Source of the DNA: a virus
Lineage: Duplodnaviria > Caudoviricetes
Strand: one strand, 5' to 3'
Virus record (IMG/VR): IMGVR_UViG_3300028630_000010
Span: 2,733 to 66,732 of that record
DNA: 64,000 nucleotides
Part shown: in pieces, positions 19,827-38,749 of the stretch
Layout of the letters: every line of letters starts with the position of its first letter
Numbering within the stretch: the stretch's first letter is position 1
Notes under the pieces: model-generated
Told to the model about the DNA's origin: nothing
The model's input: the letters and a program-made list of their open reading frames with translations, nothing else
The model's database searches: none
Program-made: the position numbers and the translations under genes

Positions 19827-19831
19827 ACAAC

Positions 19832-20356: not shown

Positions 20357-20441
20357 GCAAGCGTACCGTCACGATGAAGAGTCTGATAGACGAGAACGCT
20401 ATTTTGAATGAGTGCCACATGTCGCAGAAGAGGAGAATGTC

Positions 20442-21152: not shown

Positions 21153-21156
21153 AAAT

Positions 21157-24100
21157 CTACATGCCTCTCAGCCTGTCGAGCTTGTCCTGAATCCGCCCAG
21201 CCTCGAGCTCCTTCATCTCGGGACTCATCTTCCTGTCGTTCATGATGTCGCGTTGTTTTCTCTTCAGGCTTTCTAACTCCTCGGCATTTTTCGTGTAGCC
21301 TTCGGCCACCTGTTGCGCCAGCTCGGCGTTGATGGGCAGACTTCGCGCCAGCATCCCCAACAATTCCATTGACATCCAATTCACGAACAGGAAGGGGTTG
21401 CGAACGGGCTCGATCCCTTGGTCAGGATCACCCATATAGAGTTCCCCAGCCGTCTGTAGCGAAAGGGGCACCGGGGCAATCGAACGCAGCAGGTTCAAGT
21501 AGCGCCGGTCGTAGCCGGGTTGATGGGGCTGGGCGCGCGGCCCCGCAGCCTGCCCCTCGTAATTCTTTCCCCGCGCCAGGTCGATGAACATCCCCGTCAG
21601 CGGTTTGAGCTTAGATCGCGCAAACCGGCCGAGGGCGGCATAGTCGCCTTTTTCGCGTTTGTATTGCTCGGTTATCACGAGTCCGGTTTCGGTCGCGAGT
21701 TTGTCCCCATTGTCGATCACGCTTATGACATCCCGCGCCCATTCCGGCAATAGGTCTATCAGTCCGCCCCCCAGGAAATTCATCGCCGCGCGATCCCAAG
21801 TCGCCTGTCCTCCTGTGATGTCGACGCGTTGTTGCCCGAACATGAGTTGGGTGTAAGCGGGATGCCCCGATCTGAACTGGAACCGCTGTTGGTCTTTGTC
21901 GTCATACAGTAACCAAGAGAGAACCCGCGCGATGAAACTCAGCGTGGCGTACCCGATGCCCGACCGCACATACTCCATCAGGATCATCTTACGGGCCTGC
22001 CGGCTATAGCGGGGATTAGCCAGCATCCCGAACATGCGCCGATAGTATTGCGCGTTCGCCAGCGCCAGCCGGGGCGAGTAAAGAAGGTGTCGCCCGAAGT
22101 CGATTACCGCGCGGGCGGTTTGGGTGCTCATATCCCCGCGGCCGCCAAAGATATCCACCGTGCTCACGATGGCGTAGATGTCGTCTTCGTTCGGGGTCTC
22201 CCCTTTGGCGACACTCATCTGGTTGTAAAGCTGTTTGGCGACGGTGAACCGAAGCAGGTTGCTCATCCCGGCATAATGGTTGTTCGACACCCCCAAGACC
22301 GATGTGACGAATCGCGTGGCTTTACTTGGGAGCATGTTGTTCAACAGCGGGCCGACGGGGATTTGCTGCTCGTCGAAGGAGGTGGGGTCGGCGGTGATGT
22401 CCATCCAATCCAACCCGCCTTTGCGGACAAGGATATCGAAGAGAGGGTCTTCCCGTTGTGCTTGATCGAGTTCGTAGTAATACCTGTCGGAACGCTCCTG
22501 CCATGTGAGAGTGCGCCCTGTGTCATCGGTCATCCCCGACCTATGGAAGACAATGTGCTGTGACTGAGCGAACGCCCGCGCCCACATGATCGGGTGCGCC
22601 CGGCCGATCTTTATGAGCTGGCGCCCGGCCACGCTCTCGTCGACCATGGATTGCAGACCTTGGATGATGTTCTCCACTCCCTCGAACGCCATGAGCGCTT
22701 TCTTGGGAAGGGGGGCCGAACGCCAGCGGGCTTTCAGTCGCTCCACTTGCGCCCGCTCCATCTCTGCTTTGAATTCCTTGTAGAGGTTCGCGGCGTTCTC
22801 AATAACCGCCCGGCGTCGGGCGATCTTGGCCTTGGTGCCCTTCCCCAGCTTCTCGATGAGCTTCCTCACGCGTTTCAGGCGCTCGTTGGCCGTCTTCAGC
22901 TCTTCGTCGGTCTTCTGATACGCGGCCAGCTTTTCGGCGTGGAGCTTGGTTAGGTCGGCAAGCTGCTTTTCGAGGGAGGCCAGAAGCTCGGGGGAAGCCC
23001 CCGCGTACTCCGCATCCAGCGCGTCAAGCTTCGCCTGCAGGGCGTCGACCTTCCCCTGAAGCTCCTCCACCTGCTGATTCAGGGCCTCGCGCAGGGCGAT
23101 CTCGTTCTCGATCCCGGCGATCTGCGCTTCAAGTTGCGCCTTCTTCTCGGAAAAGGCGGTCGCCTCTCTGGATTGCTTGGCGTATTCCGCCTCCAGCGCC
23201 GCCTTCTTCGCCTCCAGCCTGTCCACTTCCGTCTTGACGGCGGCGCGGGCGGCTGTGACATCGGCCAGCTTCTTTTCGAGTTCGACCACGCGGGTGTCAA
23301 GCTCCCCCTCGCCGTCGGGGAGGGTGGCAGCGTCCACATAGTCGTTCCACTTCTTTTCGAGAATGTCGATACGAGCCTTCAGCTTCTCAAACTCGGCGCG
23401 GGTCAGTTCTCTCCCTATGTCTTCCCTTGCCTGGCGGTAAATCTTCACGATGTCGAAGGCGTGATCCACGCGCAGCTTCAACGCTTGCAGCGCCTGACCG
23501 GCCAGCGAGCCGTACTGGCGCGCGGCGTTAAGATAGTCGATGGTTTCGCGGTTAAGACTGTCCCGCATCATATCGACGGCATTGAGGTTATTTAAGTCAT
23601 GAGCCTCCACAGCCGCTTGCGCTTGCCGGTCGCTGTCCTTGGCACGCTCGTCGAGGTCGGTCTGATACCAGAGCATGATCGCGGTTTGCAGTTTGTCCAA
23701 GGGGCGGGTGGTTGCGCCTGTGAGACGCTCCGCCGTCAGCTTTTGGGCGATGTCTCGCAGGAAGAGCTTGCCGCCTACATCCAATGCTTCACGCACATGG
23801 GCGGCGGCTGCTTCGTCGGTGATGGTGGGCACGCCCTGCAGCGCCTGAGCGTACAGCCGCGCCCGCTTTACGTCCAGCGACTCCTTTGTCTGATCAAACA
23901 CGGGGCGGGTGTCGCCCTTCTCGTTGACGGGCGTGTCTATGGCGAGGGTGCCCCTGTCCTGAATGATCGGCGGGGCCTCATCCCGTGCGCCCGACTCCAC
24001 CTCCATTTGGAAGGCGTGCCGCTCGATCATGTCGAGGGCGACCAGATCGATATGCTGACGCAGGATGTAGTCGCGCACCGCGTCCGTACCCTCCCGCTCG

Positions 24101-27100
24101 CCGATCATCTCTAAGGTGGCTTTCTCCTCGCCCTGAAGGGAGTCGAAGACGAAGCCCACGGCCTTGCCGAGATTTTCCTCGATGTTCTTCATGCCGGCGA
24201 GGTGGGGACTCTCGGAGAAGGTCTCCAGCGCGTTACGCCGGACGGCCTGCCGCTCCTTCTGCTCGCGGTACAGGGCGCGGGAGCGCTCCACCTCCGCCAT
24301 AAAGGCGTTGGCGAAGGTCTCCACATCGTCGAAGTTCAGCTCCTTCGCCAACTGGTCGATGTTGCCGCGGCTCTTCTTCTCGCCCAGCGCCGCCTTGGGG
24401 TACCGGAAAAATGCCTTCCGCTCGGCGAGATTGAACGCCTTGAGCCCGCCGGCCTCGGTGAACCAATCGTACTCGCCCTTCCTCCCGATGGCGCCCCGGG
24501 GGATGATGATCGGGCTGCCGCCCCGGATGTGGTCGAGGATGGGGAAGCCCACGGGGTCGTCGTTCTCAAGCTGCGCCTGCGTGCGCAGCTCTCCCACCCG
24601 CACGGGAGCGGAGATGTCGTCGTCCAGAGTGACGCCGGGAAGTTTGAAGCGGATGTCGGCCCGGGCGTCGTCGAAGCGGCGCGAAAGGGGGATCAGGTCG
24701 CCGTTGTCATCGTATGTGGCGGCGTCGGCGGACTTGATCTGCGAGGGCTTAAAGACGGCGTAAGTATCTGATCGCGCTCCATTCTCGAAGTTTTGAATGT
24801 TGCGAACGTGAACTCCATCTTTTCCTGCCTCGCGAGCGTCACGAATCCATCGTTCCATCACATCTGGTTCGTAAAGCTCGCCGTGTGCGTCCACTTCCGC
24901 AAAATTTCCCTTGAGCCATGCACGAACAGACGAGGTTGATCCTCTCGGATACGGAAACTGAACAGCTTCGTCTTTGGAATCGCTAAAGAAAATCGCTTCC
25001 TCTTTACCCTCACGACTTGTCCGAAACTCCGTGATTGGAGAAATGCTGCGAGTACCATGCCAGCCTTCCACATCATACCCCGCCGCCTTCGCCGCCTCGT
25101 CCACCATCCTCTGCGCGGTATCCATGTCGCCCCGCGACACGGCGTCGGCATGTTCGGCATCGAGCTTGACGCCGGGAAGTTTGAAGCGGGGTTGCCCCTG
25201 CATCACGGAGTCGCGCATGGCGGGGGTGATCGGGAGAGAGTGCGCAACCACCACATTCTTGTCATGATACGAAGTGGCATACCCTTCGCCCATAAGCCCG
25301 CGCTGGCGCATTACAGTATGCGCCTGCTCGGCGGTAGCGTACCTGTCCTGATTGACAGGAACGCCGTCGCGCAAAATCGCCCAACCGTCAACCTCGGCCC
25401 CCATTTTCACATCCTCCACCCGTGCCCCGAACTTCTTGCCGATGTCGTTTGCGATGGAGGGGAGTATCTGGTCGTAGAACGTCCTCATGCCCTCGCCGCC
25501 GACCTTGAGGTCGAGGCCGCGCAGGGTGAAGAAAGCCGGGTTGGAGGGGGCGGACTTGGGCCACGGCTTACCCTTGTTGCGGTCCGCGCCCTCGATGAGC
25601 TTGGCCGCTAAGTCTTTCCCGATGGTGTCTTCCATCTCGGCGGGGGTGAGCTTCTTGCCGGAGCGCGAGTACGGCGCGATCTCATCGCCCCGCATGTCCT
25701 CGATGATCAGGTTGTACGTCCCGTCTCCGTTGGATATGGCAGAGGCCATGCTGATATGCTTACTCAGGTCATACCGTTCCGCCTGCTGCTCGCCAGTGGT
25801 CCACGCTATTCTATCGAAGTTGTTCTCGGCCGCCCAGCGCAGCATCCGCTTGAACGCCAGCCGCGCCCAGCCCTTGCTGGTGTCCTTGAAGGGGGCGTCG
25901 GGAACGCCTTCGGCGGCTTTACTTATCGCCGCCTCCTTGGTGCCGCCGACGATCTTCGTAACCTCGTTGCCCTTGGCATCGTTTATTTGCCAATGGTTGA
26001 ATCCCGCATCCGGCGCAGAAAGCAGTCGAGCCGTCCACCCAGTAGTGTCTTTTGCGTACCCCTTCTTCTTGCCCTCCTGATGCCGGTCCGATTGAACCTC
26101 CTCCAAGAACAGGGTCTTGTCCCCGTTGGCGGCTTGCCTTTCATTGAAGCGGATATGTGCAAGGACGTTGGGTTCTTCCCAGTGGGAGGAACGGTATTGT
26201 TCCCCGACAGGCACATCTTGATAATATTCGGCCAAGTGCTGTTTGGCCTCGCTTTCATAATCGTACCCCTTGCCAACAGTGCGCCCCTTGTTATTGTCGA
26301 AAACCCACCAATACCCATTTTCTTCTACAAGGTAGTACCTTTCTCTGTTCGGCAGCGTCAGCAGAAGCTCCCGGTAGTTCTCGCCGCCGGGAAGCTGGTA
26401 CTGCTCAAATTTCGTGGCGTTGTCGAGGTCTTTCCCGATGCGCAAACGCCGCGCAAGCTGTTCATATCGGGCGTCTTGTTCAGGCGTCCTATCGCGCCCG
26501 AGTCGTGCAAGTGGCGTCAGCTCTTCCTGCATGTCAAGCTCCGCCTGCGTCTGCCCCTTCACCACCTCCCGGATCTCCACGTCCTTGGTCGCCTCCAGCA
26601 CCTCCGCCTTGGTCACATAGTCGCCGGGGTTCTTGCCGTCCAGAAAGTCCTTGAGGCCCGTCCACTCGATCTCGTCCGCCTTGACGCCGGAGCGGGACGG
26701 GTCGATCATGCCGCGCAGGGCCATGACGGTCATGCGGTTCGGCATCTTGGCCTCCAGCGTGCGCCGGAGCTGGCTGAAGAAGACAGGCTCGGCCGCTGCG
26801 TCGAGCTTCACCCCCGCCAGTTTGAACCTCGGGGCGTTTCTCGCCACAGCATCCTGCCCCCCGACCTTGGCCTCGTCCGAGACGATCTGCGTCGCCTGGA
26901 GGGCGGGATGAAGGGCGGCAAGATTCTTCAGCGCCGTGTTAGCTTCATCGACCCCCAGATAAGGGCCGGTCACATACCCCCGCGAATCCGGAGTGTCCCG
27001 CAGACGGCTTTCCGCCCCGGCCGCGCGCATGATCTCTGCCACGGTGATTTTTTTCGACTTGGATTTAGCGGGAGTGGCGATGCGGAACGCGAACACCGCC

Positions 27101-30100
27101 CCGGCCCCGATCTGATCGCCCGTGGTGCTGCTGTAGGTGGGGGTCACTTTCACACGGCCGGCATCGATTTCCAGCGCCCCGTCCCGCGCCACGGGGCGGA
27201 TATCCATCACATCCGTCACCTTCTCCAGCCGGGAGGAGACAATCTTCTTGGCGTTCGCAACCGTGACGCCGCGCGGCATCATCAGAACGAAGGAGGAGAA
27301 ATTCCCGTCGGCCGGGAGCGCCCGCACGATTTGAGAGGCGCCACTCGCGCCCGTCGCCACGATGTTGCCGATAAGCGCCTGCGCCACGTCCCCTGCGATG
27401 ATCGTCCGGTCTTCCTTGCGGGTGAGGGTCTCGTTGTAATTGCGCTCCGAACTTTTAGCCGCGTTGGAGAGGATCTTGTCGGCGAAGATCGACAGGGGGA
27501 TCGTGGTCACGCCGCGAATGGTGTTGAACGACACCTTGACGCGCCAGTCCGAAGCCGTCTGCGCCGTGCCGCTCGGGGGAAGGCGCGCCTCTATCGGGAC
27601 GAACCAGCGCCGCCCCCCGCCAACGTCGTCGCGGACATAGTACACCTGCCCGATACTGTCCAGAGCGCGCTCCAGCACCTGCGCCGTGTTGCCGTAAATC
27701 CGTTTCAGCCAGGGGTTGGAGGTGCCCGCAATCGCCTTGTCGATCTTGGCCTTTGCGTCATCCAACATCGTCGGATGCTTCGCCTGCCACGCTTGAGCCG
27801 CCGCTACCGCTTCGGAGGCGGTCAGAATCTTGCCCCGCCCGAGCACCGGCACCTCATAAGCACGCATCGCGGAGTCGGACAGAAGCTGCTCGACCGTCAG
27901 CGGCACGCGCCCGATGTCACCGGCCTCCAGATCGTGCAGCCCCGCCTCGCGGGCGTTATCCTGCAGCGCCGCCACCTTGGCCTGAATCTGACCGATAAAC
28001 TGCTCCTGCTCCCGCACAGGCAGAAACTGACTGATGGAGGTCGCCGCCCGGATCCCCGTCGATGGCCGCAGGGCGTTGATCGCGGCCACGACAGGATTGC
28101 GCTCCGCCGCCAGCTCCGCCAGCGCTTTGTCGCCGAATACGTTCATGAAATCGAGCGCGTCTTCGACCTCTTCGCCATACCCCGCCTTACTCACGCCGGA
28201 GGTGTTGGCAGAGAGGCTGCGTAACTTGCTCATGAGAATGGCCGCGTTGCGCTGCTCACCCGCCGCCGATGTGAAAACGAGATAGTAGATCGGCTTTGAG
28301 AGCTGGTTCTTGCGGTTCACACGGCCGAACATCTGCATCATCTCGTTGATGTCCCACGCGGGCTGCAGAACGAACAAGACGCGCTGCGCCTGATTGCGAA
28401 AATCACTACTGGCATGGGCGGAGAGCCCCGTAGACCCGGAGCTGCTCAAAACTAGCACCATGTTCGGGCTGCCGTCCGGCGCCCCCTGATTGAATTGGCG
28501 GATAACGGTGTCTGGGTTGGGCTTGATTCTGCGTACGACAACGCCGTTCTGAACCATGAGGGTGCGACCCGTCACCTCACCGAACTGGTACCCGGCGTTC
28601 TCCACGATCTCCCGCACCCGGTCAATGGGCGAGGCGGGGAGATTCTGCTCCCGAAGATAGTCGGCCGCGGACCGGGCCTCCCGCACAAGGGCGTCGGCCG
28701 CATCGCGCAGCATGGTGGCCTCCTGTGTCTTGACAAGCCGCACCAGCTCACCGAAGCCGGCGGGGGTCAGAATGGAGGCGCTGGAGCCGTCGGGCATCTG
28801 GATCGATACCGCCCGTTCGGAAATGCGCGTGAGATAGCGCCCCACGTCGGCCTTTTGCCCTAGACCGATCTCTGTCAAAAGCGCCTGATTGGTGTTGTAG
28901 AGCGTCACCACAGGGGCACGGCCCGCGCGAAGCTCCGCCACGGCCGCGTTTGCCACGGTCTCGGCCTTGAGCGCCGTGTAGATGAAGGATGCCGTATTGT
29001 GGAGGCTTGACATAAATGCCGCGCCGTCCATGTTCACGACGGGCGCTCCCTTCTGCAAGCGGGAGTTTACCGTCTTCACCATTCCGCCAAACCGTATGAC
29101 CGACCGCACCGCCTGGTTGAACACGTCCGCGATCTGCTCTTCACGTTGGGATAACGCCGTCCGCTCTTGCGGGGAGCCGAGGGTGTCAATGGTCGTCAGC
29201 TTCTCAAATATCACATTCTCGTAATCCAGCTCGTGCCGGACATAGAAACCCCGCTCAGTCAGCCGTGCTGCCAGATACTGCTGGAAGGGCACGCCGCCCA
29301 CCATCAGAGCCTTCTCCATGTCTTCGTCGTTCTTGAAGAATTGGGAGTAGCCCGCCCGTTTGTAGAGAGTCATGTTCTCGCCGCGCTTGGCGAAGGTGGC
29401 CGAAGAGAAGACCACGCCGGGCTTGGCCAGATCGGCGAACTCGCGCAGTACCGCGCCGCGGTTGGAATCCGCCCCCGCCGCAAGATGTGCCTCATCCATC
29501 ACCAGTGCCCCCTTGCCGGAAACAAGAAGTTTCTTGATGAGGTCGATTTTAAGCCGGGTGTTGGCGGTCGGGTTCTGCACCTGCGAGTAGGTCAAGAAAA
29601 TGGCGTTTGCCCCTTGCGGCAACTTGCCTTCCGACAGCGCCGAGTTCCGCCGAACGGGGGTGAAAAACACGGGCATGGAGAAGGCGTCTGCGTCTTCCGA
29701 ATCCGGGTCTTCGTTCTTTGGCGCCTTGTAATCGTTCATCACAAGGGGCTTGAAACGATCCTGTGCGCCGATGGCTGTGATATCGCGCCAGATGTCCGTA
29801 AACAGCTTGGCCTGCGCCGTGAGGAAGATCGGCACGCGCCCGTTCAGGATATGGTAATCCATGACTGATGCCATGACTCTTCCCTTGCCGGCACCTGTCT
29901 GGCTTCCAACGATAAAGCCCGTGCCCTCGTCGATCTTCTCCAGGGCGAGACCAAGGGTGTCGATCTGCGAGCCGTCCAGCTCCTTCTCGGTCATCGGGCG
30001 GCGCATTTTTTCGGCGACAAAGGTATCGATCCCCTCCGGATGGCGTTCATCGAATGAGATAAGGGCTGCAGCCATGCCGCCCGCCAGCTCGCGGGGCACC

Positions 30101-33100
30101 TTCATGGGGCTTGCGACCTTCACGGCGGAGAGGGGATCGTAATCGAGCTGCGCCTTGTCCTCCTCGGCGTCCATGTCAGTGGTACGGGCAGCGTTCCAAC
30201 GCGCCTCGAACGCCTCACGCAATGCCGGCCCCATAGAGTTGAAGCCGGTTCCCGTAACAAACCCGTTGGCCGGATTGGCGGCAAGGTGCTTGGCGATGGC
30301 GTCCGCCACCTTTATTCGGGCCTCGGCAATCTCCGCCGGCAGAGAAAGAATGTGGCGGGCGAGCTGATCGGGATTGTGTACCTTCCCGGCAAATTCCTTA
30401 TCCCAAATTTTCCCGTTGATCTTCATCATGAAGGGGTTAAGGGTGAGACCCGTTTCGGGTGTGACAAGCCCGAGCTCGATGTCTTGAGAGAGACGATAGC
30501 GGAGGGTCCCTGCGGCGCCCTCCTTCACGCGGGCAGCATTCACCTCGGCGCTCGACGCCTCGGCATTACCCTGTGCCTCTGCACGCGCCTGTTCCGCCTT
30601 GCCGGACAGGTCAAGGTTGTTCGCCACACGTTCGCCTAAAGTCTCCGCCCCCGGATCGTACATCTCCGCCACGGCGGCGCGGATATGCTCCCAGGTCGAA
30701 TAGCGGGCGGGAAGGTCGCGCATCGGCATGTGGGGGTTCATCTCGCTGCCGTCGGTCTTCTCCATGAGCAGGACTTCGACAGGGAAAGACGCCCCCATCT
30801 TGCGGTACAGTGCCCCGTCCGCGATGAAATGCAGCGTGGCCTTCCAGCCCCGCCGGTTCAGCTCCTGATGAAACTTGGCGAACGCCCCGGCGGTGTAGAC
30901 CCCCGCCAGCGCCCCGGTCGGCATTTTCATGGCGTTGCGCCCCGGAGCCGCCCCGATGAAGAACAGGGTGTCGCCCGGCACGGCGGATTCGATAGTCTTC
31001 AGCGCGATCTTGTGCTCCAGCTTGTAGCCGGACTCGTCCGCGGGGCCGAATGGGGGATTCATCAGGAAGGCGCGTTTGCCCTTGCTGGCCGCGTCTCTGA
31101 TCGCATTCTGGAACTCTTCGGCCCCATAGTCCCCTGTAAAAATATGCGCCGCCGTCCTCATCTCCTTTGTAAGGAAATCGGTCAGCCGTGAGGAGCGCCC
31201 CGCATCAAGTTCGTTCGCAAGGATCATGTCAGGGCTGCGCACAGTTGCAAGTAACCCCCCGTTGCCCGCCGTGGGTTCGACAATCGTCGCCCATTTTCCA
31301 TCTCGCGCGGTGCCCATCGCCGCCTCCGCTCCGATGGCGGCAAGCGGGGGCGGAGTGCTGTACGCCTGCCGCTCCTTTGAGTCGGCGGTGCGAGTAGCCG
31401 CTGCCTTGCGCGCCTCATAGGCGGGCAGCTCGACATCCATCACGGCCAGCGCCGGGGCGGCGGCATACTCGGCATCGGGGATCGCCCGAACCCGCGCCTG
31501 CGTCTCCGCATTGGCCTGCAACTCGGCGATCTCCTCGGCGTCCTTGGCGTCGGTGGGGTTGGCGCGTTTCTGATCTTCGGCGGATAGATTGGCAACAGGA
31601 GATTTGACCTCGACTTTCGGCTTTTGTCGTGATTTGTCCCGCTCTTGCCGTAATTTGTCCAACCTTGAAAGCTCTTCTTCACTCCACGCATCAACCTCAT
31701 ACCCGGCTGGTGTGGGAGGTTGCGGGGCCTCCTCGCGGCCTGCGGCACGCCGCAACACATCAACCTCGGCAAATCCGCCGTTTGTGAACGTAAAAGACCC
31801 GCCAACGGGGTCAATCTTGATCGCCTTGTTTTTCCGGTATGACGCCAGCGCGGTTTCGGCTTCCGGCTTGGTCAGCCCTGCGGTACGCATGGCGAAGTCG
31901 ATGAAGGCGTTTTCGGCGTTAACGATGCGCTGCGCGACGGCGCGCATTCCGGGGATAGTTTCTTGCGAAGCGGCGGGTGCCTTCGCCGCCTGCTCCTTGT
32001 CCCACTCCGCCTTTGCCGCGGCAACGCGCCTGCGGTAGGCGCCGGTGTTCTCGCCGTACTTGATCTTCGGGGGCTCGAATTGCGCCACGGCGGGGGCTGC
32101 TTCCTGCTCGGCCTGGGGGGCTGCCGGAGCGGCCTCGCCCTTCTCATCCGGCACGATCTCAAACTCCTCGCCCGTCCAGTTCGCGGTCTCGTCGGGGTGG
32201 GCTGCGACATAGCGCATCATCTCCTCTTCGGAGGCGAACTTCATCTTGGGGGCGGGGGCGGGCGGCTCGGCTTTGGGGGCCTCGGTTTTCGGAGCCTCAA
32301 CGGGCTTCGCTTCGGCTGTCGGAGCACTGTCGGATGCTGTCGGAACGGCCGGTTTCGCCCCCTCCTTGTGCCGGTTGGAGAGCTTCTGGTTGTGGGTCGC
32401 CCACTCCGTGACACCCCACTTCTCGCTGCCTTCGGGGGCCTTCCCGCCGCCGATGATCCGCACGGCGCTGACGGTCTCGGACGCGCCCTTGACGCGCATG
32501 AGCGCCGCCATCCCGTTCAGCACCTTCCCGTGATGGTCGCTGGACACGTAGAACACCTTGGCGTTCCCGCGCTTGCTCTGACGCAGATACGTGCGCTTCC
32601 CGCCGACCGAGACGCCGGGGATCTCTACGTACTCGCCACCCCGCTTGAAGCGGCCCGAACCTTGCCTCGGTACACGGTGAAACTCCACCTCGGCATTCTT
32701 CTCGGCTATCTCCACAGCACGCTTTTGAAGTCCTTCGCCTTCGGGCTTCCCACCCGTTCCGGCAGCTTCTGATCCTTGGGCGTCTCCGCCTCCATCTTTT
32801 TCAGCACCTCCGGCTTGTTCTCCGCCAGCCACTTTCTCTGCGCCTCGCTCTTGATCGGCATTCTGTACCTCCTTGGGTTTCTGATTCAGCAGCTCCAGAT
32901 CATCCGGAGCCACGCCCTCCATGCCCGGCAAGGGCGGGGTGCTGTCGCCCAGATCGCCCTTCAGCGGCGCGGCGGCCTTCTTAGCGATCTCGTCCCGCTC
33001 CTCCTGCTTCTTGCGCTGCGCCTCGACCTTCGCCTTCTCCGCCTCGATCTCGGCGGGGGTGCCGCCTTCGAGGACGAGGGGCACGGCAGGGGCCTCCCCC

Positions 33101-36100
33101 TGCCCCGCTTCAGAGGTGGGCACAATCGGAGCCCCGTCGCTCTTTGCGGGTGCAGGGGGAGGCACGATCTCGAAATTCTCTTCGGTCCAGTTAGCCGTCT
33201 CCTCCGGATGCGCCTCCACATACTCCAGCATCGCCTCTTCACTGGGGAAGGTCATCTTCGCCGCGGGGGTTGCCGGGGCGGGGGGCTCGGATTTGGGAGC
33301 TTCGGCTTTGGGCGCTTCAGGGGGTGTCTCGACCGGCGCCGCCTCCTCCACGGGAGCTTTGGCCTTTTGCTTCGCTTCAAAGGCCGCTTTGATGTCCTTT
33401 GCCGCCGCTACCGCCTCGGGAGACGGAGCTGCGGGGGGTTTCGCTTCGGAAGCCGCGACTGGTGGCACCGTCTCTGCGCCGGGGGCTTCCTCCCCTTGTG
33501 CGGGCATAGCTTCGGGCGCGGCCTCTCCTGCGGGCTCTACGGCCTCTTTCTCGCCGGTCTCGGTCCCGGCTGCCGCAATCGGGTCTCCGGTAAATGCCGG
33601 GGCGGGCACTTTCCACGCATCCGGCCCGCCGTACAGATCGACTTTTGCCTCACGCCCGCTGTACATGATCAAAGCCACCGCCCGGCGCACATCCCGCATG
33701 TTCTTGGCGCTCTTGTCCTTGCCGCGCAGCAATGTGACCAAGCCGTCGCCAAACCGCTTGCGGAACAGGGGTGTCATCCTCTCCTGCTGCATCGACAGGA
33801 CTTCCCCCACGGCACCGGCATCCGTCAGCTTGACACCCCGAGCGGCATAGTCCGCCCTCACCGATTCCACCGCCTTGACAAACTTCTCCAGCCCGCCCGC
33901 GCCGGGGGCGATGATCTTCGCCTTCTGGAACTCCGCCGCGATCCAGTTGACCGTCTTTCCGGCCATGAGCTTCGTCAGGCCCGCCTCATCCGCCACGCTA
34001 TGCCCGGTCTCATGCTTCACATTGTACACCAGATCGTCGAAGGAGGTGATCGCCGCGACGTTCAGGACAATCGTGCCGTTGGGGGCGGTCAGGGCGGGAT
34101 TGCCGGATTTGTACTCTGCCTCGTCCGCGCCTTCTGCCACCGCCGCCGCCTTCATGTCCTTGTCGCTCTGCACCAGCACCACGTTGCGGCCGGGGGCGAA
34201 CACCTGGGCGACCCGCGTGGCGATCTCGGCCCGCTTCTCCATGTGAAGCTGCCGCCCCTGCTTCGTCTGGCTCATCTTCTCCGCGCCCTTTTGAGCCTCC
34301 TCCGCCGTGTTGAACGTCATGGGGGAGAGCACGCCGTCCCGATCGCGCACAGTGATCGCCGTACCTTCCAGCGTGGAGGTATAGTCCACCGAGAAACCAG
34401 ACTTTTCATCATCGACCGTAGCCGCGCCGTTCGCCGCCTCTTTCGCCACATCGACAGAGAAGTTGGGCTTGATCCCCTCGCCCGTGCGCATGAACAACTC
34501 AGAATCAATCGCCCGCTGCGCGGATAGGGAGAGCCACTCGCCTGCGTCTTTGAACACCTCGGCGTACTTGTCCCGGTTGGCCTCCGCCTCATAGAAGGCG
34601 ACGAACGCCTTGTATTTCCGCTCGTCCGACATATAGGCGAGCTCGGCGTTGGTGTGGCCCGCCGCCATCAAGTACGTGTCGATAATGTGGCGCCCCCTTT
34701 TTGTCTGCACCGCGTGCATCGCACCGCCGCCCAAGGTGAGGAGATACTGAAGGGCGAACCCCTCGGCAAGCGCCGTCAGGTTCTCCCACGATACGAACCC
34801 CTTATTGACGCCATCACCCCATGCAAACTCCCTGGTCTTCTCCCCGATCGTCATCTGCCGGGTGCCGGCCACGGCGTAGCCGCTCTTCTCCCCGTAGCGG
34901 GCGAGCATGCGCTTGGCCGTCCGCTCTTCATCCGAGCCGGGCTCCACCCGCATCTGCTCTATCTCGCCCGTCGCCTCGTTAAACACGTTCTTGACGTAGA
35001 CAGGCACCTCGGTGTCGGAAGGGCGCTGCGCGAACACGGCATCCCCCCACTGCTGAATGCCCTCCTCCCCCAAGAGTTCGGTAAAGGGATTATTCGTTGC
35101 CGACAGCCCGGCTATCCGCAGAACCCCTTTTGCGAACTCGGCGATACCCCTCCCGATGCGGGTCTTTAACACCTGTCTGGCCAGGGCATCGTACCCCTTA
35201 GAGGCCCCTTTGCTAATACGCCCGCCAGTCAGTAGCTTATCGGCTCCTTTGAAGACCGCTCCGAGAATCTTATCCAGCAGAACCTCCGTCGCCGCTTCAA
35301 ACGCCCCATAAGCGTAGCCGCGCAGCCGGGCGTCGTCGTAGTCCGTGCCCGCCTTCTCCACTTTGCCCGTGTCCGGGTTGATGTCGGCCGACAGAAGCTT
35401 GGTGGTCTTGTCCACACCGGACACAGCCCCCCCAAGCACCCCCGAACCTATCATCGCGGCGGTCTTAACCCCCGCCGCCGTCAGTCCTGCCGCTCCCGCA
35501 ATGCCGCCGGTCAAAGCGCTACCGACCAAGAACGTGTTGCCGGAGCCCACCGCGGGCATGCCCTTAGCCACCAGCACCCCCGCCTTCTCAAGAAACCCAA
35601 GAAACCCGCCGGTGTTCCCCGCCAGCTCCTCGCGCAAGGCAAGCTCCTCCTTCGCCATTTCCATGATCTGCGCCCTCGCCATGGCGCTCGACTTCGCCGC
35701 CGCGTAGATCGCCTCTGCGCGGGTGCGGGCGTCCAGCGGGGCCTCGGGGGTGTCGTACTGGTTCACCAGATCGATAATCTCCTTGGGAACGGAGGCGTCC
35801 TGCTCCGCGCGGGTCATGTCCTCGATCTTTTTGAAGGTGCGCAAGTTGGGGCGGGGCACGCCCGCCATACCTGTAGCGATCTGCGCTCCGATATCTCTCG
35901 TGTCCCCGACCTCCAGCTCCTGTCTGGCCGCAATGCGGCTGACAAGGGCGTCATTGCGTCTGCGAATCGCCCCACCCGCATGGGCGTATTGATAAAACGC
36001 CGCTTTCAGCCCGAACCCCTCCACATTGCCTTCCGGCGTCATGCGGTTGGCTTCTTCGGGGTCGCCGCTTTCCGCCAACTTCATCAGCGTGGAGTAGCTG

Positions 36101-36351
36101 GGGAAGTTCAGGGGGTTGGTCAGGCGCCGCGCCACGATGGGGTCTTCGGGGGTCATGCCGTGATAGGCCGCCCATTTCTTGATGCGCTCGTACTCCTTCG
36201 GGTCGGCCAGCTTCGCCCGAAAGGCGGAGAGGGGACCTCCGGCAGCCGGCGCGGCTTGATCAACAAGTGTCACCCCCTCAAAGTCGGCAAATGGATCGCT
36301 CGCGGCTTCGACCAGTTTCACGCCCTCGAACCCCTCGAAAAGATCGTTCAT
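21157..36351 (-). CDS. 5064-aa polyvalent virion/ejection protein (HExxH motif, N6-adenine MTase, Strawberry-notch helicase, LPD-like and ART-like domains)
   Basis: HETGH (34000-34014); EPTAGNG and NPPF; GSQTGAGKGR, DEAH and QMFGRVNR; LFLEEVQSD domain; WHGT...FFS...VFKPSQIKS. Confidence 0.9.
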   Translation of the reverse strand: MNDLFEGFEGVKLVEAASDPFADFEGVTLVDQAAPAAGGPLSAFRAKLADPKEYERIKKWAAYHGMTPEDPIVARRLTNPLNFPSYSTLMKLAESGDPEEANRMTPEGNVEGFGLKAAFYQYAHAGGAIRRRNDALVSRIAARQELEVGDTRDIGAQIATGMAGVPRPNLRTFKKIEDMTRAEQDASVPKEIIDLVNQYDTPEAPLDARTRAEAIYAAAKSSAMARAQIMEMAKEELALREELAGNTGGFLGFLEKAGVLVAKGMPAVGSGNTFLVGSALTGGIAGAAGLTAAGVKTAAMIGSGVLGGAVSGVDKTTKLLSADINPDTGKVEKAGTDYDDARLRGYAYGAFEAATEVLLDKILGAVFKGADKLLTGGRISKGASKGYDALARQVLKTRIGRGIAEFAKGVLRIAGLSATNNPFTELLGEEGIQQWGDAVFAQRPSDTEVPVYVKNVFNEATGEIEQMRVEPGSDEERTAKRMLARYGEKSGYAVAGTRQMTIGEKTREFAWGDGVNKGFVSWENLTALAEGFALQYLLTLGGGAMHAVQTKRGRHIIDTYLMAAGHTNAELAYMSDERKYKAFVAFYEAEANRDKYAEVFKDAGEWLSLSAQRAIDSELFMRTGEGIKPNFSVDVAKEAANGAATVDDEKSGFSVDYTSTLEGTAITVRDRDGVLSPMTFNTAEEAQKGAEKMSQTKQGRQLHMEKRAEIATRVAQVFAPGRNVVLVQSDKDMKAAAVAEGADEAEYKSGNPALTAPNGTIVLNVAAITSFDDLVYNVKHETGHSVADEAGLTKLMAGKTVNWIAAEFQKAKIIAPGAGGLEKFVKAVESVRADYAARGVKLTDAGAVGEVLSMQQERMTPLFRKRFGDGLVTLLRGKDKSAKNMRDVRRAVALIMYSGREAKVDLYGGPDAWKVPAPAFTGDPIAAAGTETGEKEAVEPAGEAAPEAMPAQGEEAPGAETVPPVAASEAKPPAAPSPEAVAAAKDIKAAFEAKQKAKAPVEEAAPVETPPEAPKAEAPKSEPPAPATPAAKMTFPSEEAMLEYVEAHPEETANWTEENFEIVPPPAPAKSDGAPIVPTSEAGQGEAPAVPLVLEGGTPAEIEAEKAKVEAQRKKQEERDEIAKKAAAPLKGDLGDSTPPLPGMEGVAPDDLELLNQKPKEVQNADQERGAEKVAGGEQAGGAEKDGGGDAQGSEAAGTGGKPEGEGLQKRAVEIAEKNAEVEFHRVPRQGSGRFKRGGEYVEIPGVSVGGKRTYLRQSKRGNAKVFYVSSDHHGKVLNGMAALMRVKGASETVSAVRIIGGGKAPEGSEKWGVTEWATHNQKLSNRHKEGAKPAVPTASDSAPTAEAKPVEAPKTEAPKAEPPAPAPKMKFASEEEMMRYVAAHPDETANWTGEEFEIVPDEKGEAAPAAPQAEQEAAPAVAQFEPPKIKYGENTGAYRRRVAAAKAEWDKEQAAKAPAASQETIPGMRAVAQRIVNAENAFIDFAMRTAGLTKPEAETALASYRKNKAIKIDPVGGSFTFTNGGFAEVDVLRRAAGREEAPQPPTPAGYEVDAWSEEELSRLDKLRQERDKSRQKPKVEVKSPVANLSAEDQKRANPTDAKDAEEIAELQANAETQARVRAIPDAEYAAAPALAVMDVELPAYEARKAAATRTADSKERQAYSTPPPLAAIGAEAAMGTARDGKWATIVEPTAGNGGLLATVRSPDMILANELDAGRSSRLTDFLTKEMRTAAHIFTGDYGAEEFQNAIRDAASKGKRAFLMNPPFGPADESGYKLEHKIALKTIESAVPGDTLFFIGAAPGRNAMKMPTGALAGVYTAGAFAKFHQELNRRGWKATLHFIADGALYRKMGASFPVEVLLMEKTDGSEMNPHMPMRDLPARYSTWEHIRAAVAEMYDPGAETLGERVANNLDLSGKAEQARAEAQGNAEASSAEVNAARVKEGAAGTLRYRLSQDIELGLVTPETGLTLNPFMMKINGKIWDKEFAGKVHNPDQLARHILSLPAEIAEARIKVADAIAKHLAANPANGFVTGTGFNSMGPALREAFEARWNAARTTDMDAEEDKAQLDYDPLSAVKVASPMKVPRELAGGMAAALISFDERHPEGIDTFVAEKMRRPMTEKELDGSQIDTLGLALEKIDEGTGFIVGSQTGAGKGRVMASVMDYHILNGRVPIFLTAQAKLFTDIWRDITAIGAQDRFKPLVMNDYKAPKNEDPDSEDADAFSMPVFFTPVRRNSALSEGKLPQGANAIFLTYSQVQNPTANTRLKIDLIKKLLVSGKGALVMDEAHLAAGADSNRGAVLREFADLAKPGVVFSSATFAKRGENMTLYKRAGYSQFFKNDEDMEKALMVGGVPFQQYLAARLTERGFYVRHELDYENVIFEKLTTIDTLGSPQERTALSQREEQIADVFNQAVRSVIRFGGMVKTVNSRLQKGAPVVNMDGAAFMSSLHNTASFIYTALKAETVANAAVAELRAGRAPVVTLYNTNQALLTEIGLGQKADVGRYLTRISERAVSIQMPDGSSASILTPAGFGELVRLVKTQEATMLRDAADALVREARSAADYLREQNLPASPIDRVREIVENAGYQFGEVTGRTLMVQNGVVVRRIKPNPDTVIRQFNQGAPDGSPNMVLVLSSSGSTGLSAHASSDFRNQAQRVLFVLQPAWDINEMMQMFGRVNRKNQLSKPIYYLVFTSAAGEQRNAAILMSKLRSLSANTSGVSKAGYGEEVEDALDFMNVFGDKALAELAAERNPVVAAINALRPSTGIRAATSISQFLPVREQEQFIGQIQAKVAALQDNAREAGLHDLEAGDIGRVPLTVEQLLSDSAMRAYEVPVLGRGKILTASEAVAAAQAWQAKHPTMLDDAKAKIDKAIAGTSNPWLKRIYGNTAQVLERALDSIGQVYYVRDDVGGGRRWFVPIEARLPPSGTAQTASDWRVKVSFNTIRGVTTIPLSIFADKILSNAAKSSERNYNETLTRKEDRTIIAGDVAQALIGNIVATGASGASQIVRALPADGNFSSFVLMMPRGVTVANAKKIVSSRLEKVTDVMDIRPVARDGALEIDAGRVKVTPTYSSTTGDQIGAGAVFAFRIATPAKSKSKKITVAEIMRAAGAESRLRDTPDSRGYVTGPYLGVDEANTALKNLAALHPALQATQIVSDEAKVGGQDAVARNAPRFKLAGVKLDAAAEPVFFSQLRRTLEAKMPNRMTVMALRGMIDPSRSGVKADEIEWTGLKDFLDGKNPGDYVTKAEVLEATKDVEIREVVKGQTQAELDMQEELTPLARLGRDRTPEQDARYEQLARRLRIGKDLDNATKFEQYQLPGGENYRELLLTLPNRERYYLVEENGYWWVFDNNKGRTVGKGYDYESEAKQHLAEYYQDVPVGEQYRSSHWEEPNVLAHIRFNERQAANGDKTLFLEEVQSDRHQEGKKKGYAKDTTGWTARLLSAPDAGFNHWQINDAKGNEVTKIVGGTKEAAISKAAEGVPDAPFKDTSKGWARLAFKRMLRWAAENNFDRIAWTTGEQQAERYDLSKHISMASAISNGDGTYNLIIEDMRGDEIAPYSRSGKKLTPAEMEDTIGKDLAAKLIEGADRNKGKPWPKSAPSNPAFFTLRGLDLKVGGEGMRTFYDQILPSIANDIGKKFGARVEDVKMGAEVDGWAILRDGVPVNQDRYATAEQAHTVMRQRGLMGEGYATSYHDKNVVVAHSLPITPAMRDSVMQGQPRFKLPGVKLDAEHADAVSRGDMDTAQRMVDEAAKAAGYDVEGWHGTRSISPITEFRTSREGKEEAIFFSDSKDEAVQFPYPRGSTSSVRAWLKGNFAEVDAHGELYEPDVMERWIRDAREAGKDGVHVRNIQNFENGARSDTYAVFKPSQIKSADAATYDDNGDLIPLSRRFDDARADIRFKLPGVTLDDDISAPVRVGELRTQAQLENDDPVGFPILDHIRGGSPIIIPRGAIGRKGEYDWFTEAGGLKAFNLAERKAFFRYPKAALGEKKSRGNIDQLAKELNFDDVETFANAFMAEVERSRALYREQKERQAVRRNALETFSESPHLAGMKNIEENLGKAVGFVFDSLQGEEKATLEMIGEREGTDAVRDYILRQHIDLVALDMIERHAFQMEVESGARDEAPPIIQDRGTLAIDTPVNEKGDTRPVFDQTKESLDVKRARLYAQALQGVPTITDEAAAAHVREALDVGGKLFLRDIAQKLTAERLTGATTRPLDKLQTAIMLWYQTDLDERAKDSDRQAQAAVEAHDLNNLNAVDMMRDSLNRETIDYLNAARQYGSLAGQALQALKLRVDHAFDIVKIYRQAREDIGRELTRAEFEKLKARIDILEKKWNDYVDAATLPDGEGELDTRVVELEKKLADVTAARAAVKTEVDRLEAKKAALEAEYAKQSREATAFSEKKAQLEAQIAGIENEIALREALNQQVEELQGKVDALQAKLDALDAEYAGASPELLASLEKQLADLTKLHAEKLAAYQKTDEELKTANERLKRVRKLIEKLGKGTKAKIARRRAVIENAANLYKEFKAEMERAQVERLKARWRSAPLPKKALMAFEGVENIIQGLQSMVDESVAGRQLIKIGRAHPIMWARAFAQSQHIVFHRSGMTDDTGRTLTWQERSDRYYYELDQAQREDPLFDILVRKGGLDWMDITADPTSFDEQQIPVGPLLNNMLPSKATRFVTSVLGVSNNHYAGMSNLLRFTVAKQLYNQMSVAKGETPNEDDIYAIVSTVDIFGGRGDMSTQTARAVIDFGRHLLYSPRLALANAQYYRRMFGMLANPRYSRQARKMILMEYVRSGIGYATLSFIARVLSWLLYDDKDQQRFQFRSGHPAYTQLMFGQQRVDITGGQATWDRAAMNFLGGGLIDLLPEWARDVISVIDNGDKLATETGLVITEQYKREKGDYAALGRFARSKLKPLTGMFIDLARGKNYEGQAAGPRAQPHQPGYDRRYLNLLRSIAPVPLSLQTAGELYMGDPDQGIEPVRNPFLFVNWMSMELLGMLARSLPINAELAQQVAEGYTKNAEELESLKRKQRDIMNDRKMSPEMKELEAGRIQDKLDRLRGM
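24630..24652. repeat. 23-bp direct repeat flanking the ART-like domain, copy A
   Basis: TGACGCCGGGAAGTTTGAAGCGG, identical at 25167-25189. Confidence 0.9.
25167..25189. repeat. 23-bp direct repeat flanking the ART-like domain, copy B
   Basis: Identical to 24630-24652; offset 537 bp (179 codons). Confidence 0.9.
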
Positions 36352-36360: not shown

Positions 36361-37578
36361 CTAGAAAATGGTGATGCCGTACTTCTGCTGCAACGTCGCC
36401 CGGTTTTTCGGGTTGTCCGGCATTCTTGCCGTCTGCCCGTTAATCGTAACAACAAGCTCTCCTTTGTCAAGCTTCGCTTCGACCTTTGGAGATTGCCCCG
36501 CGGGCGCGGCCCCTGCGGTGGCGCCGGGCTCCTCCCCGATCGCCAGAACCTTGTCCAAGAGCGCCTTGGTCTTTGCGCGGAGTGCCACCTTCTCAGGGTC
36601 CGGGGGCAGTCCCTTCTTCTTGGCGTATCTCATATCCTCGTCGTAGGTGTTCAGAATAGCGCCCAGCTTCGTGACGGATGTGGCGAGATCCACCTTCGCC
36701 GGCAAGATCCCAAGCACTTCCCCGACCTGATTCTTCAACTCCTGAAGCTTCATCGCCCGCTCTGTGCGCTTGTCCTCGACCGCCAGCGTGGTATCGCTCT
36801 TAATGCCCGCAACCTCCTTCGCGATCTGATTTTTGAGCTGTTGAATCTCATACGCCTGCATGTACTTGTCCATGGCGATGTTCATTCGGGTGTTGTTGGT
36901 GTCCCTTGTCTTATACATCTGGATGAACTCGCCGACACCTTTTTCGCCATAGAGGGAATGCGCCACCGCGAGAAGCGTCATGGGGTCTACCTCTTGCCGC
37001 TGTTTGCCCACCTTCCCTTGCTCATCGGACGCGATCACATCGTACCAGAGACCTTCCGGCCCGCCGCCCATCCCGACAATGCTGCCCGGATCACCATCCG
37101 CCACGCCGTTTGCCTGATTTATCCGGCTCAACGTGGCGGTCGGAGTGACACCGTTCAGAGCCGCCGTGATGAGACCCGCCCCGAACGCACTCTGGCGAAA
37201 CTTGGTCAATGTCGCACGCCTCGCCTGATCCTCATCAAACTCCGCTTGTGCCTGTTGAAGCATAAGCTTGGCGTTCTCCTGCTGCATTTCGCGCAGAGAT
37301 TTCCCGGCGTCAAACTCCTGTTGCTTCAGCCCGATTTCCTGCTGCTTCAGTGCCCTGTCGGCATTCGCCTGTTGCATGCTCGCCTGAAGCTGCGCCCGCT
37401 GCGCTTGGGCCTGCGCCTGAAGCTGCTGCGTCTGCATCGCCATCTGCGCTCGGAGTTGTTGCGTCTGCATCGCTATCTGCGCAGCAATTCGCTGCCGCTG
37501 CAAAGCGGCCTCATGCGCCCTCGCCTCTCGGGCCTGCCCGATCTCGACCGAGCCGTCAAATATCCCTTTGAACGCCAT
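36361..37578 (-). CDS. putative internal virion/ejection protein
   Basis: Gln/Ala-rich helical N-terminus; immediately upstream of the giant gene, as podovirus ejection proteins usually are. Confidence 0.6.
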   Translation of the reverse strand: MAFKGIFDGSVEIGQAREARAHEAALQRQRIAAQIAMQTQQLRAQMAMQTQQLQAQAQAQRAQLQASMQQANADRALKQQEIGLKQQEFDAGKSLREMQQENAKLMLQQAQAEFDEDQARRATLTKFRQSAFGAGLITAALNGVTPTATLSRINQANGVADGDPGSIVGMGGGPEGLWYDVIASDEQGKVGKQRQEVDPMTLLAVAHSLYGEKGVGEFIQMYKTRDTNNTRMNIAMDKYMQAYEIQQLKNQIAKEVAGIKSDTTLAVEDKRTERAMKLQELKNQVGEVLGILPAKVDLATSVTKLGAILNTYDEDMRYAKKKGLPPDPEKVALRAKTKALLDKVLAIGEEPGATAGAAPAGQSPKVEAKLDKGELVVTINGQTARMPDNPKNRATLQQKYGITIF

Positions 37579-37593
37579 AACGATCTCCCTTCT

Positions 37594-38745
37594 TTACGCC
37601 TTGCCGAACAGTGCGGTAAGCACATTATACTTCTGTTGGGTGAGCATTGACAAGAGACTGCCCCCCTGTGTGGAATAATAATCCGCCGCCACCGCCTGCG
37701 CGTTGACCTGCGTATTTGCCGCCGCTGTACGGGCGCCCGCTCTGCCTATGGCCGCGTCGTTCACGTTCGCCGCGATGCCCATCGCCAGATTGCCGGAAGC
37801 GGCGTACATGTTGCCCTGGGTGGCAATGATGTTCGCCGCCTGCGCCTCCAAAGACCCTTTCGATGTGAGAGCCGCCGTCGCCTTGCCCTGCGCGTCAGAC
37901 GCCGCCATGGTCGCAGTGATGGCCTCATCGGAGAACGCCTTGCCCATGCCGCTTGCCTCAAGCGCCATGGCGAATCCGCTCCTAAGAGCGTCGGCCTGAA
38001 GCGACAACCCGGTTTTGCGGGCAGCCGTCATCATCGCGGCCACGCTCGCCTCTTCACGCTCTTTGATCTTCCCGAGCGCCGCCGCCACCGCTCCCGACCC
38101 CGCCGAAATACCTCTTCGAGCCAGCGACATCAGCAGATCCTTCTGCGCCACGTCCGCAGCCTTCCGTGTGGAGGTCGCCGCGCCAGCGGCCATAGCGTCA
38201 GGGGACATCTGATTGTAGAGACGGGCAAATTCGCCGGCCATTCCCCCCGCGTTGGGGTCCATGCTCAACAAATCCTTGCCCGCGTCGAGCCAAGGAAGGG
38301 CGTTTGCCCTGGCGAATGCCGCATCCCGCTCCATCGAGGCGGCAAACTGCTTAAAGATATCGGCGGTCTCTCCGACCTCCCTTGCGGTCTGCATCACGTT
38401 ATCGGCGAATCCTCCTAACTGCCCCGCAGTCTCGGTCAATGCCGCCCCCGCCGAACGCGCGGCGTTCAGATCAGCATTGCTCTGCGCCGCCGCAAGGTTC
38501 AGATCCCCGGAAACGGTCTGAAGATTCTGCGCGGCAGCTGTGCTCGCCGCCCCGACGGCGGTTTCTCCCGCCCGCACCAGCCGGGTCGCCTCCGCGCCGG
38601 CTGCCGCCGCGGCCAATTCGCCCGGGGACTTGTTCTTAACCCCACTATCCCCGCCCTTGAAATACCATAAATCGTTCTTGAAGGGTGATGGCATATTCAT
38701 CGCCCCGAACTTGAACGCCTCTTCTGTGTATCCGCTGATCGGCAT
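37594..38745 (-). CDS. putative DNA-pilot/ejection protein (Ala-rich)
   Basis: RBS before ATG 38745; YFKGG near the N-terminus; Ala/Gly-rich helical body. Confidence 0.6.
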   Translation of the reverse strand: MPISGYTEEAFKFGAMNMPSPFKNDLWYFKGGDSGVKNKSPGELAAAAAGAEATRLVRAGETAVGAASTAAAQNLQTVSGDLNLAAAQSNADLNAARSAGAALTETAGQLGGFADNVMQTAREVGETADIFKQFAASMERDAAFARANALPWLDAGKDLLSMDPNAGGMAGEFARLYNQMSPDAMAAGAATSTRKAADVAQKDLLMSLARRGISAGSGAVAAALGKIKEREEASVAAMMTAARKTGLSLQADALRSGFAMALEASGMGKAFSDEAITATMAASDAQGKATAALTSKGSLEAQAANIIATQGNMYAASGNLAMGIAANVNDAAIGRAGARTAAANTQVNAQAVAADYYSTQGGSLLSMLTQQKYNVLTALFGKA

Positions 38746-38749
38746 AATC

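Follow-up and report, generated by a model that had tools for sequence, protein, structure and literature searches.

The window analysed here is the whole 64,000-nucleotide stretch formed by positions 2,733 to 66,732 of IMG/VR virus record IMGVR_UViG_3300028630_000010 (Duplodnaviria; Caudoviricetes). Its largest feature is a single stop-free open reading frame (ORF) on the minus strand, which takes up 23.7% of the window and encodes a polyvalent protein of 5,064 amino acids (aa), P0001, referred to below as the giant (Table 1). The initial annotation, made from the sequence alone, had described one ORF of about a quarter of the window, encoding a polyvalent protein in the ejection-protein position. 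It listed, from N- to C-terminus, an HExxH motif, Pro/Ala linkers, an N6-adenine methylase, a Strawberry-notch superfamily 2 (SF2) helicase, an LPD-like domain (LPD, large polyvalent protein associated domain), an ADP-ribosyltransferase (ART)-like domain and a long coiled coil. All of these features were recovered in the searches and models reported below.

The giant gene and its relatives

The gene makes up 22.8% of a 66,732-bp contig whose first 167 bp reappear at the contig end. Because of this terminal overlap, the contig is taken as a complete phage genome. The source is a short-tailed phage from activated sludge. At the start of the gene, the TAG of the upstream gene overlaps a Shine-Dalgarno-like GGAGAG located a few bases 5' of the ATG, and the start codon is credible on sequence grounds.

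A search of 5.8 billion proteins returned the giant itself, seven full-length relatives and 84 distant giant proteins. The full-length relatives (4,183-5,238 aa) are colinear with the giant from end to end, with 63-90% identity in the best segment. The distant proteins carry LPD, ART-PolyVal, InPase, RadC and similar domains. Megablast against GenBank phages found no close DNA relatives of the gene, and tblastn of the N-terminal and C-terminal modules against GenBank phages gave no match. No match was found with the two halves of the giant in a PDB sequence search. Pattern scans for C module relatives in 185,579 species genomes and IMG/VR found none, and no prophage or host could be derived.

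Table 1. Features of the giant gene and of upstream virion genes, in window coordinates.
Feature	Residues (aa)	Window coordinates	Strand	Evidence
Whole gene, polyvalent protein P0001	1-5064	21157..36351	-	ORF, Shine-Dalgarno-like start, 7 colinear relatives
N module, lineage-specific	1-935	33547..36351	-	Conserved in 7/7 relatives
HExxH motif HETGH	780-784	34000..34014	-	Invariant in 7 relatives
Variable zone 1: Pro/Ala linkers, small modules, two ~33-aa units	936-1636	31444..33546	-	BLAST blocks break here
Predicted gamma-type N6-adenine methyltransferase, ends LRYRL	1637-1951	30499..31443	-	Motifs and profile via P0030
Strawberry-notch SF2 helicase/translocase with C-terminal extension	1952-3174	26830..30498	-	AAA_34, Helicase_C_4
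Junction 1, PRFKLAGVKLD	3174-3184	26800..26832	-	Coincides with BLAST block end q3185
'LPD-like' cargo domain, read as GNAT fold with large insertions	3186-3720	25192..26796	-	AlphaFold2 model and structural alignment
Junction 2, PRFKLPGVKLD		25159..25191	-	23 nt identical to junction 3
ART-PolyVal ADP-ribosyltransferase-like domain, conserved tail	3733-3900	24652..25155	-	PF18760
Junction 3, IRFKLPGVTLD		24622..24654	-	In-frame 540-nt skip in wild contig
C module, first part: lineage-specific region, then ~260-aa coiled coil	3917-4560	22672..24603	-	Conserved in all relatives
C module, last part: LPD38-like, all-helical (core ~aa 4691-4930)	4561-5064	21160..22671	-	Profile, AlphaFold2, BFVD, hhalign
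Two ~400-aa ORFs directly upstream of the giant, conserved partners		36361..38793	-	Same order in relatives L001-L004
Nozzle-type tail protein, sets virion type		43634..45052	-	PDB 8jov_A, 1.9e-25; tblastn, 358 phages

Position at the end of the virion module

On the minus strand, a virion module extends from 61120 to 21157, with the giant as its last gene. The genes run in the order terminase (TerL), portal, BspA-LRR fibre, a 472-aa nozzle-type protein, a 1,602-aa protein, two ~400-aa ORFs and the giant. The phage-encoded giant thus has TerL, portal, fibre and nozzle genes upstream on its own strand, as is typical of the polyvalent class, which adjoins portal and terminase late genes. The PDB match of the 472-aa protein is a hexameric 'virion-associated protein' from Ralstonia phage GP4, and the phages matched by tblastn belong to the Stx/933W-phi24B, Ralstonia GP4, Burkholderia Bcep22 and Vibrio groups. 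The two ~400-aa ORFs gave no family match. The local order is retained in relatives L001-L006, where two ORFs of ~300-430 aa are followed by the giant and then by a convergent early/replication module.

The Bcep22-like giants of Lessievirus (Bcep22 gp75, BcepIL02 gp70 and JC1 gp69) likewise stand at the very end of the virion module, with a homologous GP4/933W-type nozzle upstream. They have 4,500-4,700 aa and account for about 22% of a ~60-kb genome, close to the proportion seen here. BcepIL02 has a matching gene order that ends in gp70, a 4,667-aa protein annotated as 'DarB-like antirestriction protein'. In JC1, gp69 (4,515 aa, 22.1% of the genome) was identified by 51 unique peptides in CsCl-purified virions (PMC9144972). 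The nozzle and tail type is also shared with phi24B, whose gp47 (LPD5/LPD1/LPD38/MuF-C, 2,811 aa) is an abundant virion protein by proteomics, is absent from the cryo-EM map and was proposed by its authors to be an ejection protein (bioRxiv 10.64898/2026.04.10.717836). The assignment of the giant to the ejection-protein position, downstream of a GP4-type nozzle as is BcepIL02 gp70, is therefore supported by synteny with virion-proven giants.

Conserved ends and exchangeable middle

Conserved and variable blocks were defined by BLAST against the seven relatives. The N module and the C module (aa 3917-5064) are conserved in all seven. The methylase-helicase block (~aa 1600-3185) is conserved in six, the remaining relative (P0009) having a different helicase there. 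Two zones, aa 936-1600 and aa 3186-3900, vary by whole cassettes. In the first zone, the insert of P0004 is an InPase cassette, and different inserts are present in other relatives; the second ranges in length from 68 aa (P0008) to 871 aa (P0003). As the end modules are conserved and the middle zones vary by cassette, the layout can be described as carrier (N), cargo, carrier (C). In P0009 (L006, 3001-17730), a close relative, the methylase-Strawberry-notch block is replaced by a different, DEAD/ResIII-type helicase, and it has three consecutive ART-like cassettes, each closed by the junction peptide described below.

Within variable zone 1, the Pro/Ala linkers correspond to Pro-rich low-complexity segments at aa 914-1047 and 1325-1379. 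A unit of ~33 aa is found twice (aa 1032-1067 and 1369-1404; window 33156-33254 and 32145-32243). This unit (KMxFxSEE..YVxAHP..NWT..FEIVP) follows a Pro/Ala linker in both copies, and relatives have one or two similar units.

The N module carries the HExxH motif, and a Gly/Ala-rich hydrophobic stretch at ~aa 245-315 (peak at 274-292). In the ESM Atlas it resembles phage proteins and the N-terminal regions of proteins that carry LPDs, which can serve as a lead only. An apparent resemblance of the N module to the N-termini of LPD38 proteins (hhalign score 43) was treated as a probable composition effect, since the reversed control scored 32. Local iterative searches with hidden Markov models (HMMs) gave no link of the N or C module to the distant polyvalent proteins.

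Several unrelated effector or enzyme domains are thus found on one chain (methylase, Strawberry-notch helicase, GNAT-fold domain, ART-PolyVal and the HExxH region), together with signature domains of the polyvalent class, namely ART-PolyVal and, by fold and profile, an LPD38-like module at the C-terminus. The giant therefore belongs to the known class of phage polyvalent proteins and is not a new kind of system. The earlier suggestion of a possibly new domain combination is right in that the exact combination is found only in a small clade, the members of which differ by cassette; the class and its grammar were known.

Predicted methylase and Strawberry-notch helicase

In the methylase, motif I (EPTAGNGG) precedes motif IV (NPPF, aa 1765), which is the gamma-class order, and the motifs are invariant in six sequences. 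Direct Pfam and PDB searches with the methylase region gave no match; a profile of the region did match P0030, at 1210-1471, a segment that includes the Pfam N6_Mtase domain of P0030 (1229-1375), so that homology to this family is transitive only. The helicase is matched directly by AAA_34 (aa 2143-2386, 6.9e-22) and Helicase_C_4 (aa 2630-2749, 1.4e-24), both above cut-offs, and has the motifs GAGKGR and DEAH, as expected of a Strawberry-notch (Sno) SF2 ATPase. The motifs of both enzymes are intact and conserved at 63-90% identity across relatives.

The pair is shared with proteins of conjugative plasmids and integrative and conjugative elements (ICEs). A tblastn search with aa 1601-3185 gave matches of 25-31% identity in 500 plasmid records that carry the annotation 'strawberry notch family protein'; 226 of these plasmids are conjugative. 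In contrast to the plasmid and ICE proteins, the methylase-Strawberry-notch pair is here one cassette within a gene of a phage virion module.

A GNAT-like domain and an ADP-ribosyltransferase-like domain

The LPD-like domain (aa 3186-3720) is the most widely shared part of the giant in the search, being common to 66 of the 84 distant polyvalent proteins. It was modelled with AlphaFold2 (AF2) from a 15-sequence alignment (A3), with a predicted local distance difference test (pLDDT) score of 71. When the model was compared with 48,161 chains by VIA-align, all of the top 50 matches were GNAT acyltransferases (Z 7.6-9.9, root-mean-square deviation 2.9-5.4 A, 111-146 residues aligned), including TacT, AtaT, NatD and Gcn5. 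TacT and AtaT are tRNA-acetylating toxins. Foldseek of the same model against PDB gave no match, nor did sequence searches of Pfam (including its GNAT families), NCBIfam and PDB. Seven residues are invariant (H3390, N3395, R3401, E3418, Q3420, S3421 and D3422), and a near-invariant QEGxKxG follows a predicted strand, with a spacing that is non-canonical compared with Q/RxxGxG/A. On the strength of the model, the domain is read as a GNAT fold with large insertions. That the domain most shared with distant polyvalent proteins has this predicted fold suggests acyl-CoA-dependent modification of a host target.

The following domain matches ART-PolyVal (PF18760) with 40.1 bits when scanned alone (cut-off 31.2) and with 28.8 bits within the long query. 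It retains family-conserved positions, including the strand-1 His (H3765-G-T); at the strand-2 position it has Phe, the residue also present there in 68% of aligned relatives. The domain ends in a tail of ~25 aa (TYDDxGxxIPLSxRF...DIRF; aa 3873-3899, window 24655-24735), in which six positions (the IPLSxRF core plus a Gly) are 100% conserved in 33 otherwise divergent polyvalent proteins. The tail, which itself ends in the junction motif, is more conserved than the catalytic core, suggesting that it has a function of its own.

The C module and its LPD38-like domain

The first part of the C module gave matches of coiled-coil type only, with the coiled coil at ~aa 4300-4560. A profile of the whole module (aa 3917-5064) searched against 1.84 billion representatives found 864 clusters at E up to 0.001. 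The widespread part is the core of ~240 aa (~aa 4691-4930) only, which is found near the C-terminus of proteins of 250-5,500 aa.

The last ~500 aa were modelled with AF2 as an all-helical domain (aa 4561-5064, pLDDT 74). Foldseek of this model against BFVD found phage proteins (E 4e-11 and 7.5e-11, probability 1.00), followed by a series of entries that bear the name 'Large polyvalent protein associated domain (38)' or contain an LPD (E 2e-5 to 6e-4, probability 1.00; 2e-4 for one named 'LPD38') and weak matches to an 'internal virion protein' of T7-like cyanophages (E 0.013). With hhalign, the C-terminal alignment matched LPD38 modules with a score of 39.9 (P 4e-4, 353 colinear columns), compared with 14.6-19.6 (P 0.24-0.7) for six controls. 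LPD38 as defined by Pfam lies 133-333 aa from the C-terminal end in 28 distant polyvalent proteins, and is also found near the C-terminus of BcepIL02 gp70 (1.5e-20), a position comparable to that of the LPD38-like module here. Fold and profile are alike but the LPD38 HMM misses the module, which is therefore classed as a sister family and not, by sequence, as part of LPD38 itself. Thus, the last ~500 aa resemble LPD38 and, as judged from profiles and a model, define a sister family of at least 864 clusters outside Pfam coverage. The initial annotation had left large parts of the giant unassigned; this now applies less widely, as two of them, the GNAT-fold domain and the LPD38-like module, have been assigned by AF2 models with structure or profile comparison.

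The C-terminal core is also carried by two proteins without cargo, P0110 (1,142 aa; L008, 10001-13429) and P0104 (1,293 aa; L007, 1194-5075). Both are preceded by an ORF of ~400 aa, as is the giant. P0110 is the last gene of a virion-type block in a podovirus-like element, including an SU10-type adaptor (weak Pfam match). This element looks temperate, since small ORFs and an integrase come after P0110. PHROG and Pfam searches with cargo-less relatives of the C module were uninformative. P0110 and P0104 may represent a bare ejection-protein ancestor, and such cargo-less proteins with the C-terminal carrier module point to how cargo was added to an ejection protein.

Junction peptides and cassette exchange

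Each cargo module of the giant closes with xR(F/Y)(K/R)L. The looser motif R(F/Y)(K/R/S)(hydrophobic) occurs four times (aa 1951, 3175, 3722 and 3901), always at a BLAST-defined module border, compared with 0.83 occurrences expected from shuffles (P about 0.01). The motif is found at the borders in all relatives, and P0004 lacks the GNAT-like cassette exactly at a junction. The DNA of the junctions is identical over 22-27 nt within one gene; in the window these are 23-nt copies (repeat D1) with a spacing of 537 nt. Some chains among the distant polyvalent proteins are enriched in a related motif, (I/V)R(F/Y)(S/R/K)(V/L/I) preceded by an acidic run; P0062 has 10 copies against 0.8 expected. The overall count of this motif is 108 against 70 expected.

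Contigs from independent wastewater, activated-sludge and digester libraries contain variants of the gene that are 90-99% identical, with breaks in the variable zones. In one wild contig the 540 nt of 24620-25159 are missing, an in-frame gap that corresponds to the ART cassette. Loose contig ends are found at 24673 and 25076-25135 in three runs, and in two runs 31557-31977 is replaced by 55 nt. Strains thus vary at the junctions, where modules are gained, lost or replaced in frame, and the phage lineage is widespread in wastewater, sludge and digester plants. Variants of the gene at 90-99% identity are also present in RNA-seq libraries of wastewater, activated sludge and anaerobic digesters (runs X15-X19, from three studies), where contigs cannot show transcription.

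A broader proposal is that the junction, in the form of an acidic run plus (I/V/P)R(F/Y)(K/R/S)(L/V/I), is a general punctuation of polyvalent proteins. It would be both a processing site after ejection, perhaps cut by the HExxH domain, and a DNA crossover point for in-frame cassette swaps. We regard this as rather doubtful; if true, such giants would be polyproteins that are injected and that carry their own means of shuffling. The junction peptide could be tested as a processing or recombination site in culturable relatives (JC1, BcepIL02 and phi24B).

Relation to known systems

The polyvalent class, with many effector domains per chain and genes that adjoin those of portal and terminase, was described by Iyer, Burroughs, Anand, de Souza and Aravind in 2017 (PMC5512222). 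Their description includes ART-PolyVal, a methylase-helicase dyad (of which the Strawberry-notch version is mentioned), GNAT next to ART, and LPD38 as a phage-only domain. The giant differs from the class as described there in that its GNAT-fold domain matches no Pfam GNAT family and its C-terminal module is missed by the LPD38 HMM. The text of that paper has no mention of the junction peptide or of a carrier-and-cargo layout. Already described are the class itself, the methylase-Strawberry-notch module and virion-proven giants of phages that share the nozzle type. What is added here is the GNAT-fold assignment of a widespread unassigned domain, an LPD38-like carrier family outside Pfam, and evidence that a junction peptide marks units of cassette exchange. 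The class of giant virion-delivered polyvalent proteins is extended to an uncultured wastewater phage.

Compared with the Bcep22-like giants, the cargo here consists of a methylase and Strawberry-notch helicase, a GNAT-like domain and an ART domain, and the N module and most of the C module are lineage-specific. The giant shares an LPD38-type module with phi24B gp47, which is about half the size and for which no methylase-helicase pair, ART or GNAT-like domain is reported.

P1 DarB combines methylase and helicase on one large virion-delivered protein and protects incoming DNA from type I restriction. The giant is like DarB in having both on one large chain. In contrast, its helicase is of Strawberry-notch type (AAA_34/Helicase_C_4), and no DarA, Hdf or Ddr partners were identified. 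A tblastn search against 50,697 phage records gave three weak matches, none of them to a record or feature named DarB.

Proposed role and alternative explanations

The domain content, gene position, carrier-cargo layout, junction motif and cassette polymorphism are shown above; the ejection and anti-defence role of the giant, every enzyme activity and any processing are inferred, as is its packaging, by analogy with JC1 gp69 and phi24B gp47. The giant is probably a capsid-packaged, ejected phage-type polyvalent carrier protein with exchangeable cargo. Its gene, the final one of the virion operon, would be expressed late. A few copies of the protein would be enclosed in the capsid and would enter the cell by way of the GP4-type nozzle, either before the DNA or together with it. 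The carrier, made up of the N and C modules, would serve head incorporation as well as passage or conduit formation. The adenine methylase, tethered to the Strawberry-notch translocase, would most likely load on the entering genome and shield it from restriction, and for the GNAT-like and ART-PolyVal-like domains the most likely task would be the modification of host targets in aid of takeover or counter-defence. The xR(F/Y)(K/R)L junction may be a processing site, possibly of the N-terminal HExxH domain, or merely a structural module end.

A number of results weigh against this interpretation. The N module has no match in Pfam, NCBIfam or PDB, and the region of its HExxH motif matches no peptidase family in them. 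In the ART domain, the catalytic Tyr and Asp positions are unconfirmed, the Asp not being placed with confidence. LPD38 (PF18857) gave no Pfam match at E up to 1, and a locally built LPD38 HMM matches neither P0001 nor 149 relatives of the C module. Compared with PDB folds, the C-terminal model gave generic helical hairpins only and no fold match, and the C module showed no strong transmembrane segment. The giant has no match to a DarB-like PHROG, and BLAST, HMM and hhalign comparisons found no similarity to BcepIL02 gp70. As there is no sequence similarity to gp70 or to DarB-type PHROGs, the link to virion-proven giants comes from synteny and the remote C-terminal resemblance.

It seems unlikely that the giant is made late but left unpackaged and works inside the producing cell, where it might, for instance, methylate progeny DNA ahead of packaging and modify host proteins late in infection. 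Intracellular DNA-modifying functions do exist in this phage, as the replication module has a separate N6/N4 methylase and an SNF2 helicase, and no packaging signal or capsid-targeting sequence was identified in the giant, including its N module without known match. However, the gene lies within the virion operon, in the slot taken by virion-proven giants in phages with the same nozzle; the LPD38-like C-terminal module is found in phage-type proteins at the end of virion modules; and a single chain of 550 kDa would be an odd design for cytoplasmic enzymes.

About equally improbable is that the giant is chiefly a structural component of an ejectosome, a trans-envelope conduit as proposed for phi24B gp47, with enzyme domains that are accessory or inactive. 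The cargo-less relatives of ~1,100-1,300 aa, which keep carrier parts only, would fit such a role, as would the conservation of coiled coil and helical C-terminal domain while the cargo varies, and the weak BFVD matches to the cyanophage internal virion protein. On the other hand, the methylase and helicase motifs are intact at the level of conservation given above, the GNAT-like domain has invariant polar residues, and no strong transmembrane segments were detected. A structural conduit is in any case compatible with a packaged and ejected carrier protein, and the two are not exclusive.

Finally, that the ORF is an assembly or annotation artefact fusing several genes, for which only its extreme size and the long spurious frames of high-GC DNA could speak, is extremely improbable: seven independent assemblies from different samples encode colinear proteins of 4,183-5,238 aa that align over the full length, so that the ORF is not an artefact of a GC-rich frame, most of the gene is covered, with short gaps from contig to contig, by 99-100% identical contigs of an independent DNA run, and domains are found along the whole length.

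Neighbouring genes

The plus strand at 1474-21152 is a replication and recombination module, with genes for a Dda-like helicase, a RecA-like protein, a 5'-3' exonuclease, the N6/N4 methylase, the SNF2 helicase and a PAPS-reductase-like protein. A 246-aa gene (20412-21152) converges on the giant gene, with the two stops 4 nt apart, and no terminator-like hairpin was found between them (21152-21157). An overprinted gene in the methylase-helicase linker of the giant was considered and rejected, as the longest same-strand alternative frames are Arg-rich and located elsewhere. The PAPS-reductase-like gene (18536-19642, plus strand) has counterparts in relative L002 (26148-27173) and in BcepIL02 (gp67; L009, 23621-24340). 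In BcepIL02 it sits inside the virion module, and all three phages share the nozzle type.

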